Shown: in pieces, positions 10,068 through 14,772 of the stretch
Position numbering within the stretch: the first letter of the stretch is position 1
How the letters are laid out: every line of letters begins with the position of its first letter
Source: Haloferax volcanii DS2
Lineage (GTDB): Archaea > Halobacteriota > Halobacteria > Halobacteriales > Haloferacaceae
NCBI RefSeq assembly: GCF_000025685.1
Contig: NC_013964.1
Span: forward strand, 120,001 to 152,000
Length of the DNA stretch: 32,000 nucleotides
Direction: 5' to 3'
Made by a program: the position numbers and the translations under genes
The notes under the pieces: model-generated
What the model was told of the DNA's origin: nothing
The model's database searches: none
What the model saw: only the letters and a program-made list of their open reading frames with translations

Positions 10068-10826
10068 TGTTCGTCGCGACGACTTCGAAAGCCGCCCGAA
10101 GCGTCCGAAATCGATGCTTTCGACTCCCCGAGCCGGAGCCGGAACCCGAGCGTTCGGCCACAGCACTCACACGCAGTCCGGTATTATCGGATATTGACTG
10201 TGTAGAACCTGGCGGCCGGGCGAACTGAACCGAGGCGTGCCCGTCGCGGCGCGCGCGACCGCCGTGAGGATGCGAAATCAAGCGACTCGGAGATGTCCGC
10301 ACCGACTCGCGCCGCCGCAGTTGGTGGCCTGTCGTCGCCGTCCGTGACTCGTCCAATTCACCTCTGGCACTCAGCGACGAGCTCGTGGCTTTGAGCACCG
10401 GATTTCGCCTCCGTGGCAATAATAGTCATAAACCTAATTCACATATCGGTGTGTCGTGTAACAGCACGTGGGTGGAGCAATCCGACCCATGTGTAATCAG
10501 CATCCCGTGTATCCAGCACGATAGCCATCAGTACGTCAGTCATACTGTACGCACGGTAGCCCCCACCGAGTACGCCTGCCCAACTGATACTCGTGAACAC
10601 GTGGCGCGGCTACCTACCGAGCACAACGTCCCATTGATGCTCTATTTTTCGGTCGTCTCCCGTCGGCTACGTAGCGTCTGCCTTCCCGACTCCGGCCCCG
10701 CGTTATGCCTAGTCTCCGCGTGAGTCGTCGAACCCCATCTATTCCATCCGACATTGCCGGATATTACTGGTTCGATTCCGACGAACGCGCCTCTCCGAGT
10801 GTGACGAATCGCTCTCCAAACCTGAA

Positions 10827-10834
10827 GATATTTC
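10827..10834 (+). promoter_or_regulatory. Possible TATA box (GATATTTC) for the 208-aa gene
   Basis: AT-rich element centred about 29 bp upstream of ATG 10859. Confidence 0.35.
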
Positions 10835-10858
10835 ACGCCACCGTGTGAAAAGCGAGTA

Positions 10859-11485
10859 ATGGGTACCGACCAAAGCACGAACCGTCGCCTAAGCAAGGTA
10901 GAGCGGGTCATCGAGACGTACGACTTGGACGGATTCGGCGAGCAGCTCGCCGACCGCTGGACGGCTCCCGAGGACAGCGACAGCCTCCGGGACCTCGCGG
11001 ATCTGATGAACGAGAAGGTGCTCGACGCCGCGCTCCGCAAGGCGGGCGAGGACGTCCTCGAAGGCGAGGTCGAGAACCTGTACACGCTTCTCACCGGCGA
11101 CGAGACCACGGAGGGGATGCGCGTTCAGGCGAAGAACACGCTCCAGTCCCGCGGCGTCGACGTCGACCAACTGCTCTCGGATTTCGTCTCTCACCAGGCG
11201 GTCTACACCTACCTGACGGATATTCGCGGCGTCTCGAAGGACTCCTCGTCCGGAAACAGAATCGACAACGTCATCGAGTCCATCCAGCGACTCCGCGGCC
11301 GACTGGTCGCGGTCATCGAGCAGAGTCTGAGTTCGCTCCGCAACACGAGCAAACTCCGACTCGGTGACTTCGATGTCCTCGTGGACACGCAAGTGTACTG
11401 CCGCGACTGCGGGACGCAGTACGAGGTGGTCGAACTGCTCCAGCGCGGCGGGTGCGACTGCGACGAGAGCGAATCGAACTACTGA
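10859..11485 (+). CDS. rdfA: Small acidic protein with C-terminal Cys4 zinc ribbon; RdfA-like (rod-determining factor family)
   Basis: 208-aa acidic ORF. Cys4 motif CRDC-x14-CDC (C181, C184, C199, C201; nt 11399-11461). The overall pattern (EVENLYTLLTGDE, SDFVSHQAVYTYL, YEVVELLQRGGCDC) matches my memory of the haloarchaeal RdfA family. I am confident this is a real gene, but only about 0.6 confident in the family name. Confidence 0.75.
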   Translation: MGTDQSTNRRLSKVERVIETYDLDGFGEQLADRWTAPEDSDSLRDLADLMNEKVLDAALRKAGEDVLEGEVENLYTLLTGDETTEGMRVQAKNTLQSRGVDVDQLLSDFVSHQAVYTYLTDIRGVSKDSSSGNRIDNVIESIQRLRGRLVAVIEQSLSSLRNTSKLRLGDFDVLVDTQVYCRDCGTQYEVVELLQRGGCDCDESESNY

Positions 11486-11529: not shown

Positions 11530-11537
11530 TTTTATAT
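11530..11537 (+). promoter_or_regulatory. TATA box (TTTTATAT) for the SMC-like gene
   Basis: Centred about 28 bp upstream of ATG 11561. This supports 11561, rather than the GTG at 11537, as the start of a leaderless mRNA. Confidence 0.55.
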
Positions 11538-11560
11538 TGGTGTACCTGTTGGGTCAAGGT

Positions 11561-13510
11561 ATGAGCTCAGAACAAGTGTCAAAATCCAAAGTCCACCTTT
11601 CGGTCGAGAATATCGGTGGCATCGACGACCTGTCAACGTCGTTCGAGCCGGGTGTGACCGTCTTGGCGGGTCGAAACGCCACGAACCGAACGTCGCTCTT
11701 GCGGTCCATCATGGCCGCCCACGGGAGCGACGATGTGGCGCTCAAAGGCGACGCCGACGAGGGCTCCGTCGAACTCACTATCGGCGACGAGGCGTACACT
11801 CGAACGTTCGAGCGGCAGGGCGACACGGTCATCTCCGGCGGGAACCCCGTCCTCGACGACCCGGACCTCGCGGACCTCTTTGCGTTCCTGCTCGAGACGA
11901 ACGACGCTCGACAGGCGGTCGCCCGCGGCGACGACCTCCGCGACCTCATCATGCGTCCGGTGGACGTCGAGTCGATAAACGAGCAGATCGAGTCGCTCCA
12001 GCAGGAGAAACGCGACATCGCCGACGAACTCTCGACGCTCAGCAACCTCTCGGACCGCCTGCCGCAGCTCGAACGCCGGCGGACGAAGCTCGAAGACCAA
12101 ATCGAGGAGAAGGAAGACGAACTCGCGGAGAAAGAACAGGAAGTCGAAGAGTACGACGCCAGCGTGAGCGAGCGGCAGGAAGTCGAGAGCGAACTCGAAT
12201 CCAAGCTCGGTGACCTCCGGAGCAAGCGCCGCGACATCAACGACGTGGACCGCCGCATCGAGACGGAAAAACAGAGCCTCGACGCGCTCGAATCCGAGGA
12301 AGCGGAGCTTGAGGACGACGCCGAGGACCTCCCGGAGGTCGCCGGCGGCAAAATCGACGAAATCGAGTCCGAAATCAGCCGGCTCCGGACGCGTCGGCAG
12401 GAGATTCAGTCGACCGTCAACGAGCTTCAGTCCGTGATTCAGTTCAACGAGGAGATGCTCTCGGGCACGTCCTCGGACGTCGTGGACGCGCTCCGCGACG
12501 CCGACGACGCCGGCGGGAGCGTCACCGACCAACTGCTCGGCGACGACCAGGTCGTCTGCTGGACGTGCGGTTCCGAGGTCGACAAGTCCGAAATCGAGGG
12601 GACGCTCGAACGCCTCCGGACGCTCCGCGAGGAGAAGCTCGAAGACAACCGCGACCACCGCGAACAGCTCTCCGAACTCGAAGACGAGAAGTCCACCTAC
12701 GAGCGCCGCCAGCGCGAGCGCGACCGCATCGAGCGCCGCCTCTCCGAAATCGAAAGCGAGCGCGAGACCCGCCAAGAGCGCATCGAGGAGCTCAAATCCG
12801 ACCGCTCGGACCTCGAAGCCGAAATCGACTCGCTCGAACAGACCGTCGACGAACTCGAAAGCGAGGAACACGGCGACCTGCTGGACCTCCACCGCGAGGC
12901 GAACCAGCTCGAATACGACCTCGGCCGCCTCCGCAGCGACCTCGAAGACGTCGAAGACGAAATCGCAGACATCGAGCGCAAACTCGACGAGCGCGACGAA
13001 CTCGAAGCGGCCCGCGAGGACATCGAAGACGAACTCGAAGAGCTTCGGACGCGCATCAAGCGCCTCGAATCCGAGGCCGTCGAGGAGTTCAACACCCACA
13101 TGGACGACGTGCTCGACGTGCTCGAATACGACAACCTCGAACGCATCTGGATCGAGCGCACCGAAAAGCGGGTTCGGGAGGGCCGAAGGAAGGTCACGAA
13201 ATCGGTGTTCGACCTCCACGTCATCCGGACGAACGAAGACGGCGTGAGCTACGAGGACTCCGTCGCCCACCTCTCGGAGTCCGAGCGCGAGGTGACCGGC
13301 CTCGTGTTCGCGCTCGCGGGCTACCTCATCCACGACGTCTACGAGACGGTGCCGTTCATGGTCCTCGACTCGCTCGAAGCCATCGACTCGAACCGCATCT
13401 CGCGGCTCGTGGACTACTTCGCGGACTACGCCGACTACCTCACCGTCGCTCTCCTCGAAGAGGACGCGCAGGCGGTCGACAGTTCCTATCCGCGCTACTC
13501 GCCGGCGTAA
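11561..13510 (+). CDS. Archaeal SMC/Rad50-architecture protein with central CxxC hook and non-canonical ATPase motifs (Sph-like)
   Basis: 649 aa. N-terminal head half with P-loop-position GRNATNRTS (nt 11669-11695). About 450 aa of E/D/R/L-rich coiled coil. CWTC at residues 333-336 (nt 12557-12568). C-terminal head half with LSESER (13271-13288) and FMVLDSLEAID (13355-13387). Confidence 0.9.
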   Translation: MSSEQVSKSKVHLSVENIGGIDDLSTSFEPGVTVLAGRNATNRTSLLRSIMAAHGSDDVALKGDADEGSVELTIGDEAYTRTFERQGDTVISGGNPVLDDPDLADLFAFLLETNDARQAVARGDDLRDLIMRPVDVESINEQIESLQQEKRDIADELSTLSNLSDRLPQLERRRTKLEDQIEEKEDELAEKEQEVEEYDASVSERQEVESELESKLGDLRSKRRDINDVDRRIETEKQSLDALESEEAELEDDAEDLPEVAGGKIDEIESEISRLRTRRQEIQSTVNELQSVIQFNEEMLSGTSSDVVDALRDADDAGGSVTDQLLGDDQVVCWTCGSEVDKSEIEGTLERLRTLREEKLEDNRDHREQLSELEDEKSTYERRQRERDRIERRLSEIESERETRQERIEELKSDRSDLEAEIDSLEQTVDELESEEHGDLLDLHREANQLEYDLGRLRSDLEDVEDEIADIERKLDERDELEAAREDIEDELEELRTRIKRLESEAVEEFNTHMDDVLDVLEYDNLERIWIERTEKRVREGRRKVTKSVFDLHVIRTNEDGVSYEDSVAHLSESEREVTGLVFALAGYLIHDVYETVPFMVLDSLEAIDSNRISRLVDYFADYADYLTVALLEEDAQAVDSSYPRYSPA

Positions 13511-13529
13511 CGACGCCGACAGCGCTTCG

Positions 13530-13543
13530 TTTTTCTCGTTTTT
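13530..13543 (+). terminator. Oligo-T terminator (TTTTTCTCGTTTTT)
   Basis: Two T5 runs 20-33 nt downstream of the stop at 13508-13510. Archaeal RNA polymerase terminates at oligo-T tracts. Confidence 0.45.
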
Positions 13544-13643
13544 CATCCCCGCGTCGAGTCGCGTCGCGAACGGCGCATCTCGTTTCGAGTTACACTATTA
13601 GGTGCGTCACGAACTGGGCATTGACGGCGACAGGGCGACGCGC

Positions 13644-14408
13644 TCAGGAGAGCGCGATGCTCAGTTCCAACTCCTCTGCGATGCCGAGGAGGACTTCGGT
13701 GAGACGGTCGAACTGCTCGCCTTTCATCCGGTTGGAGGGGCCGGCGACGCTCAGCGCGCCGAACACGTCGCCGTCCGGCCCCATGACGGGCGCACCGACC
13801 GCGCGAACCCCGCTGATCTGCTCTTCGACGTTCAACGCGTAGCCGCGCTCTCTGATTTCGGCGAGTTCGTCGAACAGCGCCTCCTCGTCGTGAATCGTCT
13901 GTTCGGTCTCCTTCGGGAGGCCGATTCGGTCGACGATTTCTCGGACCCGTTCTCGCGGCATGTTGGCGAGGATGGCTTTCCCGCTCGCCGTCGAGTGGAG
14001 ATAGACGCGCTTTCCCACCGTCGACTGCGTCCAGACGCCGTGTTTTCCGGGTGCGGTGTGGACGTACACGCCCCGCCCGTGTTCCTCGACGGTGAAAATC
14101 GAGCGCCGTTCCGACTCCTCGGAAAGGACGTTGGTGTAGTGTTCGGCCTTCCCGAATTTGCGTTTCCGCGTTCGGACGAAGTTCCCGAGACCGAGGAATC
14201 GAAGCCCGAGATGGTAGGTATCGCCCTCTTTAACCACGTATTCCTGCGCTTCGAGAGTCGTCACGTGAGTGTGTGCGGTGCTCGGCGCGATGTCGAGTTC
14301 GCGGGCGATTTCGGTCACGCCCGCCCCGTCGCGCTCCCTGAGTAGTTCGACGATTCTGAGGGTTGTGACCGTCGTTTTGAGCGAACGGTCGTTCGCGGTT
14401 TCGGTCAT
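13644..14408 (-). CDS. IclR-family transcriptional regulator
   Basis: Start taken at ATG 14408 (MTETANDRSL); ATG 14435 is an alternative. wHTH GAGVTEIARELDIAPSTAHTHVTTLEAQEYVV and effector domain GVRAVGAPV..GALSVAGP. Paralogue of 7509-8267. Confidence 0.9.
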   Translation of the reverse strand: MTETANDRSLKTTVTTLRIVELLRERDGAGVTEIARELDIAPSTAHTHVTTLEAQEYVVKEGDTYHLGLRFLGLGNFVRTRKRKFGKAEHYTNVLSEESERRSIFTVEEHGRGVYVHTAPGKHGVWTQSTVGKRVYLHSTASGKAILANMPRERVREIVDRIGLPKETEQTIHDEEALFDELAEIRERGYALNVEEQISGVRAVGAPVMGPDGDVFGALSVAGPSNRMKGEQFDRLTEVLLGIAEELELSIALS

Positions 14409-14772
14409 TATCTGTGGGTCGTCACCATTGCACATAGTATTTTCGCCGCTCCCGAATACCAGTTGTTCGATAACGAATGCGGGCCACGCTGACGCCGAAA
14501 CGAGTTGTTTGTGAACTATGTGCATGCTTTGCGGCTGGATTGGGGTGCGACGCCCCGCCTCGAAGACGGCGAGGTCAACGACCGAAAACCGGCAGAGAGC
14601 GGTCCGGAAGCGTCCGAAACGCGGGAGCGACAACGCTCGTCATATTTCGGCGTCTCCCGGTGTTTGGATTCGTTCCTCGTGAATCGTGCGTTCAGTGGGT
14701 GATTCGAAGCCCGAACGTTCACCGATCCAGAAGTGTTATTATCGTTTCTCCAGTTAAATCGCACGAGACGCA

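Follow-up and report, generated by a model that had tools for sequence, protein, structure and literature searches.

The Sph proteins are emerging determinants of cell shape, motility and genome-copy equalisation in haloarchaea, and are routinely termed SMC-like ATPases. In the literature, Sph2 of the salt-loving archaeon Haloferax volcanii is treated as an SMC-like protein involved in cell shape and genome maintenance. Published phenotypes of sph2 deletion comprise the formation of rods only, over-swarming, a defect in gene conversion and synthetic lethality with sph4, which indicates that Sph2 is functional. The publications found describe the Sph proteins as P-loop ATPases that carry the Walker motifs A and B, and the substitutions in these motifs are passed over. 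In literature searches, no comment on Walker motif substitutions in Sph proteins or on SMC-like pseudo-ATPases was found, and no report of biochemistry on any Sph protein. The gene described below is already known as Sph2; the reading of its motifs is new.

Sph2 was compared to two groups of related proteins. The coalescin ClsN of Sulfolobus and the other archaea-specific SMC-related proteins (ASRP) from outside the haloarchaea resemble Sph2 in their similar size, their zinc hook, the signature LSxSER and the lack of an H-loop His. They keep GK[ST] and DE, whereas Sph2 has NR and DS at these positions, and the role of ClsN is chromosome compartmentalisation, whereas Sph2 is tied to cell shape and gene conversion. 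A zinc hook similar to that of Rad50 has been described in the literature for ASRP and ClsN. Rad50/SbcC and SMC proteins share with Sph2 the bipartite head fold, the antiparallel coiled coil and the order of the motifs, and the zinc hook of Sph2 is of the Rad50 type. Unlike these proteins, Sph2 is without the Walker A Lys, the Walker B Glu, the GG of the signature and the H-loop His; nor is a Q-loop Gln recognisable, in a register of low confidence.

The sph2 locus and its RdfA-family neighbour

The window (the whole stretch of DNA that was analysed, 32,000 nucleotides) contains an open reading frame called at 11537..13510 (+) with a TTG start, which adds 8 residues before an ATG at position 11561. 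The ATG was taken as the start of sph2 because all homologues comprise 649 residues and begin with MSSEQ. The reading frame at 11561..13510 (+) is Sph2 (HVO_B0118), encoded on the H. volcanii megaplasmid pHV3 and not identified as such in the preliminary description, and its product was 100% identical to a database protein in the homologue search. Sph2 is a member of the haloarchaeal Sph clade of ASRP. It reached 710 bits with the NCBIfam ASRP model NF045487 (cutoff 300), and residues 17-634 spanned positions 1-593 of the 593 profile positions. In the 649-aa protein, two coiled-coil segments separated by the zinc hook connect the N-head to the C-head. In length, in this layout with a CxxC hook, and in the presence of an RdfA-family neighbour, the gene corresponds to Sph1/Sph2 of H. 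salinarum and Sph1-4 of H. volcanii.

According to Pfam, the neighbourhood comprises an SDR gene, an RdfA paralog, sph and an IclR gene, which is the order of HVO_B0116 to HVO_B0119. These locus names and the gap of 75 nt between the RdfA paralog and sph2 are given in the supplementary tables of PMC10869688. The chromosomal rdfA-sph3 locus (HVO_2174/2175) was considered and ruled out, as the downstream gene encodes a regulator of the IclR type instead of DdfA, a HalOD1 protein. The best DNA matches, which were Haloferax megaplasmids, and the fit of spacing and neighbours to HVO_B0116-B0119 also speak against an identity with the chromosomal Sph3.

The RdfA-family paralog (HVO_B0117; 10859..11485, +) encodes a protein of 208 aa, all-alpha with a C-terminal Cys4 zinc ribbon, and ends 75 nt 5' of sph2 on the same strand. 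It matched the Pfam family PF21811 (RdfA) at 250 bits, the cysteines C181, C184, C199 and C201 were invariant, and the AF2 model had a pLDDT of 89. A fold search of the PDB for a kleisin, Mre11 or another known SMC partner gave no significant match (best E 0.32). Sph2 differs in this from Rad50 and SMC proteins: neither an Mre11-like nor a kleisin-like partner was detected for it, and the partner is an RdfA-family protein without a PDB fold match. Exact motif peptide patterns matched 556 confirmed relatives in species-representative genomes, and the 80 of them that were kept all come from Halobacteria. An RdfA-family gene was located within 3 kb in 66 of 80 related loci, and in 57 it was the immediately upstream gene in the same orientation; the adjacency of RdfA-family and Sph genes is given as 84% in the literature. 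The upstream zinc-ribbon gene, put forward in the preliminary description from the DNA sequence as a possible partner of Sph2, is a genuine conserved one.

Motif register and head fold

Head fold and motif register were assigned by structure prediction, fold search and profile alignment, and column conservation was determined for 96 cluster representatives of a library clustered at 50% identity. The AF2 model of Sph2 (pLDDT 83) matched Rad50, Smc5/6, MukB, Lamassu LmuB and SMC heads in a Foldseek search of the PDB. E-values for Rad50, Smc5/6, MukB and SMC heads ranged from 7e-17 to 1e-7, and both head halves were covered; a bipartite head of the SMC/Rad50 type, formed by the N- and C-termini, is thus present. 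The zinc hook (C333-W-T-C336-G337; 12557..12571, +) sits at the coiled-coil apex, between the modelled helices 262-301 and 342-434, and C333, C336 and G337 were 100% conserved among the 96 representatives. The scaffold and the hook had been read correctly from the sequence in the preliminary description.

Profiles of the heads only were used for the motif register because the full-length profile was swamped by coiled-coil matches (HP0958, spike HR1) when searched against PDB sequences. The N-head profile segment GvtvLsGrNAtnRtSlL was aligned with GITVVEGPNGAGKSSLF of Thermotoga maritima Rad50 (E 4e-4) and, in the same Walker A register, with GINLIIGQNGSGKSSLL of Pyrococcus furiosus Rad50; the probability of this register in hhalign was 83%. 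The C-head segment LSeserev was aligned with LSGGERIA, and flllDs.leaiD with LLILDEpTPYLD of P. furiosus Rad50 and with FFVLDEIDAALD of human SMC1A. C-head matches to solved structures were individually weak (E 0.06-0.9) and mutually consistent, and the register of a published ASRP/SMC alignment was identical to that of the profile alignments.

At the Walker A position (11669..11695, +), Sph2 reads G37-R-N-A-T-N-R43-T44-S45 (GRNATNRTS). Compared to GxNGxGK[ST], two Gly residues are replaced by A40 and N42, and the Lys by R43. A Walker A of the form GxxGxGK[ST] with its invariant Lys is absent from Sph2, and in the alignments R43 stands opposite the Lys of Rad50 and HmuV. The signature or C-loop position (13271..13288, +) reads L571-S572-E-S-E575-R576 (LSESER), in which the Ser and Glu of LSGG[EQ] are retained and GG is replaced by ES. 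Walker B and D-loop (13355..13387, +) read F599-M-V-L-D603-S604-L-E606-A-I-D609 (FMVLDSLEAID). The Walker B Asp (D603) and the D-loop Asp (D609) are retained, and S604 takes the place of the catalytic Glu, standing opposite the Walker B Glu of Rad50 and SMC1A in the profile alignments.

The H-loop position (13448..13468, +) reads A630-L-L-E633-E634-D635-A636 and contains no His; the family consensus is ALLPEDA. Alignment with VILVSHDEEL of P. furiosus Rad50 puts the His opposite D635, and the published alignment puts it opposite P/E633. No His follows residue 591 in Sph2; H591, the sole His of the last 60 residues, lies upstream of Walker B. In the region equivalent to the Q-loop (L103 to R117, LADLFAFLLETNDAR; 11867..11911, +), N114 and R117 were nearly invariant, and a conserved Gln was absent from residues 96-122 among the 96 representatives. 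A second HMMER domain below threshold placed Q140-R158 of Rad50 (QGQIDAILESDEAREKVVR) opposite a region ending in the Sph segment aRraver. When aligned by eye, ILESDEAR may correspond to LLESNEAR, which would tentatively put A104-D105 at the Q-G position; the pLDDT of the AF2 model in this region was 65-68.

A mistaken alignment or gene call, with canonical motifs elsewhere or in another frame or start, is hardly conceivable as the cause of the degeneracy. The TTG start at 11537 and the ATG at 11561 differ by 8 residues only, and no other point was found in favour of this explanation. In a regular-expression scan, GK[ST], G....GK, hhhDE and LSGG were absent from all 649 residues; four independent alignments shared one register, and the fold match spans both head halves. 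The three motif stretches had been placed exactly in the preliminary description, as verified by translation, and the assignment as Walker A, signature and Walker B/D-loop is borne out by the Rad50/SMC profile alignments and the published alignment. Its statement that Sph2 lacks the Lys of Walker A, the Glu of Walker B and the His of the H-loop was corroborated by alignments and scan alike, and a canonical GK[ST] or DE, the finding that would have spoken against it, was found nowhere in the heads.

Conservation and evolutionary origin of the variant motifs

The search of representative sequences listed the best 150 matches, among which there were no non-haloarchaeal ASRPs; these were taken from the published alignment. 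In that alignment, ClsN and the other non-haloarchaeal ASRPs carry PNA[ST]GK[ST]S, LSxSER and DE, and the Methanosarcinales sister group carries PNASGKTS and LLDELTFLD. The Sph1 clade differs from Sph2: GK[ST]S is kept (as GKSS), Walker B is D-G (LLDG) and the D-loop Asp is missing. Intermediate sequences combine NASNK[ST]S with D[AT], and Sph2-4 combine NATNRTS with DS. The norm of the Sph2-4 subclade is G-x-NATNR[TS]S, LSESER, DS-x-E-x-x-D and ALLPEDA. As judged from these sequences, the Walker B Glu was lost in all haloarchaeal Sph proteins, with an additional exchange of GK for NR in the Sph2-4 subclade.

The signature LSxSE[RL] and the lack of an H-loop His are common to all ASRPs in the published alignment, including ClsN. 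Both variants are ancestral, occurring also in members whose Walker A and Walker B are canonical, and are therefore uninformative with regard to inactivation. They account for two of the four defects listed in the preliminary description.

The variant motifs are the best-conserved columns of the Sph2 family; they are fixed and do not drift. Mean column identity among the 96 representatives was 0.92 in Walker A, 0.945 in the signature and 0.82 in Walker B/D-loop, compared to 0.61-0.64 in the heads and 0.42 in the coiled coil. Identity of at least 95% was found in 44 of the 649 columns, 17 of which are inside the three motif stretches. Within Walker A, G37, N39, A40, N42, R43 and S45 were conserved at 96-98% (S45 98%) and T41 at 94%; position 44 was Thr in 86% and Ser in the remainder. 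S572, S574 and E575 of the signature were each 100% conserved, as were D603 and D609 of Walker B/D-loop, with S604 and E606 at 98%. At the H-loop position, conservation was 97% for L632, 82% for E634 and 90% for D635. The preliminary description had called for a check of conservation across the family; among homologues of 55-100% identity, GRNATNRTS was invariant in 119 of 120.

The residues for Mg-nucleotide contact and the clamping of the heads are among those kept, namely T44/S45 of Walker A, D603 of Walker B, S572 of the signature and D609 of the D-loop. Their conservation of 86-100% suggests continued use of the site, and the ATP site of Sph2 looks repurposed and not decayed. The term pseudo-ATPase, applied to Sph2 in the preliminary description, does not fit in the sense of a decayed site, since conservation is highest in the variant motifs and the engagement residues are kept. 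High conservation of the motifs could equally reflect a protein-protein interface (e.g. with RdfA) or contacts between heads free of ligand.

Possible functions of the altered pocket

Lacking the Walker A Lys, the Walker B Glu and the H-loop His, Sph2 is unlikely to cycle ATP in the canonical way, as had been expected in the preliminary description. The head is proposed to act as an engagement latch which hydrolyses very slowly or not at all and in which the pocket is still used and not dead; chances for and against this proposal are judged to be about even. The bipartite head retains the ABC/Rad50 fold with the residues for hydrolysis replaced (GK by NR, DE by DS, no H-loop His) and no recognisable Q-loop Gln. 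The pocket would have been kept as an interface for binding and head engagement, probably with a nucleotide or a phosphate ligand, and ATP would not be turned over at the rates of SMC proteins. Ligand binding by the pocket is purely an inference, and a Walker A with Asn and Arg may bind no nucleotide at all. To our knowledge, no Walker A has been characterised in which Asn replaces the Gly that precedes the basic residue and Arg replaces the Lys.

Two kinds of altered ATP site were used for comparison. ATP binding or engagement is kept, and hydrolysis nearly abolished, when K-to-R is introduced into Walker A of RecA or Rad51, or E-to-Q into Walker B of SMC or Rad50. The same two positions are changed in Sph2, in a chemically similar way, and Sph2 might behave as a natural combination of both changes, which would bind and engage and barely hydrolyse. 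The engineered mutants differ in being made in the laboratory and usually showing loss of function in vivo, whereas the state of Sph2 occurs in nature, is ancient and is maintained by purifying selection. Degenerate ABC sites as in CFTR NBD1 have the Walker B Glu replaced by Ser (a natural D-S) and the H-loop His lost, with the Walker B Asp kept; ATP is bound stably without hydrolysis, and the role of the site is structural or regulatory. The replaced Glu, the lost His and the kept Asp are shared by Sph2. Unlike Sph2, sites of the CFTR NBD1 type have a canonical Walker A GK[ST], and each is paired with another site that is competent; a homodimer is expected for Sph2, in which both sites would be degenerate and Walker A altered too.

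A fully dead pocket is a possible, if doubtful, alternative to the latch. Sph2 would then bind no nucleotide, the head would be a folded end-cap, and the motifs would be kept as fold core or as a docking surface for the RdfA-family protein or other partners. Two of the Walker A changes, Gly to N42 and Lys to R43, affect residues that contact phosphate, catalytic Glu and His are absent, and no Gln is recognisable. In the AF2 model, helix alpha-1 begins at A40; in solved P-loop structures, it begins about three residues later than at the equivalent of A40. The early helix start hints at a remodelled, possibly closed Walker A loop. Dead active sites usually drift, however, while the motifs of Sph2 are the most conserved columns, and the Thr/Ser that ligates Mg is kept together with the Asp of Walker B, the Ser of the signature and the Asp of the D-loop, as predicted by nucleotide-mediated engagement. 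The substitutions are also conservative, as the charge is preserved when Arg replaces Lys, and a backbone conformation similar to that of Gly is tolerated by Asn. The tight linkage of the RdfA-family partner and the cytoskeleton-like roles proposed for Sph proteins by published authors are consistent with an end-cap.

Conversely, Sph2 could be a working NTPase with relocated chemistry, which is considered improbable. R43 or K62 would substitute for the Walker A Lys, and E606 or E634/D635 would serve as the base, or a different phosphorylated ligand would be used. In the form proposed for Sph2-4, the Arg P-loop NATNR[TS]S and a relocated acid (E606 or E634/D635) or Lys (K62) would constitute a new functional site in the ABC-ATPase fold, which would either hydrolyse NTP non-canonically or sense another phosphorylated ligand, the latter switching cells between rod and disk shape; this form is given an equally small chance. 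The extreme conservation of the pocket overall is compatible with it, as are the residues named above, R612 (100%) and K62 (invariant in an alignment of 46 sequences), which are near the motifs in sequence. E606, E634/D635 and K62 would, however, have to reach the gamma-phosphate. The loss of the Glu first and of GK afterwards looks like relaxed catalysis and not like relocation, and we know of no precedent for relocated catalytic chemistry in the SMC superfamily.

As an engagement latch, Sph2 would be a long coiled-coil latch or scaffold linked by the zinc hook, and not a motor. Its partner would be the co-encoded RdfA-family zinc-ribbon protein, in the roles published for Sph2 in cell shape and genome-copy equalisation. 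An Sph clade without the Glu and an Sph2-4 subclade without Gly-Lys, with the replacements under strong purifying selection, constrain the models that are plausible for these proteins. For Sph, loop extrusion, an ATP-driven cycle and other motor models lose plausibility, and a latch, a scaffold or cytoskeletal assembly gains it. The natural series that starts with ClsN and the Methanosarcinales proteins and leads by way of Sph1 and the NK intermediates to NR could inform how an ATPase of the SMC family turns into a structural protein that does not cycle.

Identity and surroundings of the gene

GRNATNRTS (11669-11695), LSESER (13271-13288) and FMVLDSLEAID (13355-13387) were exact translations of these intervals and lay in one ORF (11537..13510, + strand). 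Homologues all have 649 aa and begin with MSSEQ, which places its actual start at the ATG at 11561. The protein matched the NCBIfam model NF045487 of the archaea-specific SMC-related proteins (ASRPs) with 710 bits (cutoff 300). Just 5' of it, at 10859..11485 (+), lies a paralog of rod-determining factor A (Pfam RdfA, 250 bits), and domain identification placed a short-chain dehydrogenase (SDR) gene upstream and an IclR regulator gene downstream. Schiller et al. 2024 (PMC10869688) tabulate in their supplement HVO_B0116 as an SDR, HVO_B0117 as an RdfA paralog, HVO_B0118 as Sph2 and HVO_B0119 as IclR, and the B0117/B0118 pair as 'serial-R-S, +75'; in the window, exactly 75 nt separate 11485 from 11561. 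Based on the neighbours, this spacing and DNA matches to Haloferax megaplasmids (95-99% identity), the gene was identified as sph2. An assignment to rdfA-sph3, a chromosomal pair of Haloferax volcanii, was rejected on the basis of the IclR gene downstream, the SDR gene upstream, the megaplasmid matches, the agreement with HVO_B0116 to HVO_B0119 and the absence from this locus of DdfA, the HalOD1 protein encoded after sph3. According to published genetics, delta-sph2 cells are rods only, over-swarm and have a severe gene-conversion defect, loss of sph2 and sph4 is synthetically lethal, and the delta-sph3 shape phenotype is opposite to that of delta-sph2.

No convincing gene was detected in the approximately 790 nt between HVO_B0116 and the RdfA paralog (10068-10858; GC 0.60 vs about 0.65, only short unsupported ORFs), which presumably hold the promoter/regulatory region of the B0117-B0118 pair. 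A 637-aa ORF (11633-13546, - strand) antisense to the entire sph2 and further long mirror ORFs overlapping the gene are typical high-GC artefacts, not genes. At 12001-13000, AT skew reached +0.425, coinciding with the Glu/Asp/Arg-rich coiled-coil codons (GAG, GAA, GAC, CGN) of sph2. HVO_B0119 was called at 13644-14633 (- strand; 329 aa from a TTG at 14633); its start is ambiguous, the HTH_IclR and IclR_C domains being in keeping with a start near 14450 and a product of about 268 aa.

Register and conservation of the motifs

Both the N-head by itself and a profile built from 25 N-head sequences aligned G37-RNATNRTS with GPNGAGKSS and GQNGSGKSS of Rad50 and GRNGAGKST of HmuV (best E 4e-4; hhalign probability 83%). 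From these alignments, A40 and N42 replace two Gly residues, R43 stands in for Lys, and the Ser/Thr position is filled by T44. A C-head profile placed LSESEREV opposite LSGGERIA, LLLDS-LEAID opposite LLILDEPTPYLD (P. furiosus Rad50) and FFVLDEIDAALD (human SMC1A), and ALLPEDA opposite VSHDEE. The C-head matches were individually weak (E 0.06-0.9), mutually consistent and in agreement with the published ASRP/SMC/Rad50 alignment. The motif readings and register of the preliminary description were thus borne out, and an origin of the readings in faulty alignment is effectively refuted. A canonical GK[ST] or DE elsewhere in the heads was sought by pattern scanning; GK[ST], G....GK, hhhDE and LSGG had no match in the whole Sph2 protein. 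The AlphaFold2 model (pLDDT 83) resembled the heads of Rad50, Smc5/6, MukB, Lamassu LmuB, cohesin and condensin (Foldseek, E 7e-17 to 1e-7).

The substitutions proved to be near-invariant. GRNATNRTS was unchanged in 119 of the 120 closest homologues (55-100% identity), and LSESERE and LDS[LIV]EA[IVL]D were invariant among the 120. An N-head search of 1.84 billion cluster representatives yielded no more than 423 clusters with E of 1e-3 or lower; the best 150 of these had G-x-N-A-[TS]-N-[RK]-[TS]-S, the [RK] position being Arg almost throughout and Lys in three. Exact peptide patterns gave 556 confirmed relatives among species-representative genomes, and the 80 listed were all Halobacteria. Conservation was computed over 96 near-full-length cluster representatives. 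Only 44 of 649 columns were at least 95% identical, 17 of them within the three motif stretches. Column identity averaged 0.92 in Walker A, 0.945 in the signature and 0.82 in Walker B/D-loop, against 0.61-0.64 in whole heads and 0.42 in the coiled coil, which indicates that the strongest purifying selection falls on the non-canonical motifs.

Beside these motifs, K62 (11744-11746), in the conserved 'LKGDADEG' just past helix alpha-1, was invariant in a 46-sequence alignment; E606 (13376-13378), within D-S-x-E-x-x-D, was 98% and R612 100% conserved. The three are candidates for relocated functional residues. That the chemistry itself has been relocated at this site, via E606, E634/D635 or K62, is regarded as quite improbable.

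Motif variants across the ASRP family

The series was read from the trimmed alignment deposited by Yoshinaga et al. 2022 (PMC9389158 Data_Sheet_2). The coalescin ClsN and other crenarchaeal, Asgard and Archaeoglobales ASRPs carry APNA[YST]GK[ST]S, LS[ST]SER and [ILV]DE, with VTR, VTS or similar and no His at the H-loop. The Methanosarcinales sister group has PNASGKTS, LS[KT]SELEV and LLDELTFLD, and the Sph1 clade GK[ST]S, LSEGERE and LLDG with the D-loop Asp lost. Intermediates combine NASNK[ST]S or NASNRSS with LS[KTE]SERE and D[AT]; H-loop His is absent from these three groups as well. The bulk of the Sph2-4 clade has NATNRTS, LSESERE, DS-x-E-x-x-D and, at the H-loop position, ALLPEDA. Haloarchaeal intermediates in the same file include GENASNKSS with IDAVEMLD, GPNSSNKTS with IDTLGAFD and GENASNRSS with LDAIESID; one strongly divergent haloarchaeal outlier has AGDAADRTS at the Walker A position.

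The series indicates that the LSxSER signature and the missing H-loop His are ancestral ASRP traits and no evidence of inactivation, that loss of the catalytic Glu dates to the root of the haloarchaeal Sph clade, and that the change from GK to NR is confined to the Sph2-4 subclade. As signs of a pseudo-ATPase, the losses of Walker A Lys and Walker B Glu therefore stand; the signature and the missing His fall away, being shared ASRP-wide, including by ClsN with GK[ST] and DE.

In the text of Yoshinaga et al. 2022 (PMC9389158), Walker A and B motifs are simply ascribed to ASRPs, the H. volcanii shape paper leaves Walker motifs unmentioned, and a literature search found no discussion of Sph motif degeneracy or SMC-like pseudo-ATPases. 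Sph2 itself was already known; its motif rewiring, the clade-wide fixation and the stepwise origin seem to have escaped discussion so far.

RdfA partner and fate of the nucleotide pocket

The RdfA paralog was modelled as all-alpha with an invariant Cys4 zinc ribbon (AF2, pLDDT 89). A fold search of the PDB returned nothing significant (best E 0.32); evidence for a kleisin- or Mre11-like protein was thus not found, and the paralog may represent a fold without a solved representative. Among the 80 related Sph loci (of the 556 relatives), 66 had an RdfA-family gene within 3 kb, in agreement with the published adjacency of 84% (H. volcanii shape paper), and 57 had it directly upstream on the same strand. 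GRNATNRTS was present all the same in the 14 loci with no such gene within 3 kb (L013, L017, L023, L039, L046, L048, L049, L051, L053, L063, L065, L069, L071 and L079 of this set). In several genomes, e.g. of Haladaptatus halobius and H. salinisoli, secondary replicons harbour more than one Sph paralog.

Sph2 is devoid of Walker A Lys, Walker B Glu and H-loop His, and probably of the Q-loop Gln, which makes canonical ATP hydrolysis very unlikely. Retained are the Walker A Thr/Ser (T44/S45), the Mg-ligand position, and, at 100%, Walker B D603, D-loop D609 and signature S572; the signature Ser touches the gamma-phosphate across the dimer. The substitutions are conservative: R43 preserves the Lys charge, and Asn is able to take a Gly-like backbone conformation.

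The unusual motifs noted in the preliminary description are thus real, and its term 'pseudo-ATPase' finds partial support: the case for a loss of canonical catalysis is good and does not extend to a pocket that has decayed or become static, since no part of the family is under tighter constraint than this site. A fully dead pocket, with conservation reflecting fold or partner docking, is held to be unlikely on the same grounds. It would fit the start of helix alpha-1 at A40 in the Sph2 model, earlier than in canonical P-loops, which is a caveat to the reading favoured here. A K-to-R change at Walker A combined with E-to-Q or E-to-S at Walker B permits binding and engagement and no turnover; examples are K-to-R mutants of RecA and Rad51, E-to-Q mutants of SMC and Rad50, and CFTR NBD1 with its natural D-S at Walker B. 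On these precedents and the retained residues the favoured reading, given roughly even chances of being correct, is that the Sph2 head pocket would still be in use, as a head-engagement latch that cycles very slowly or not at all.
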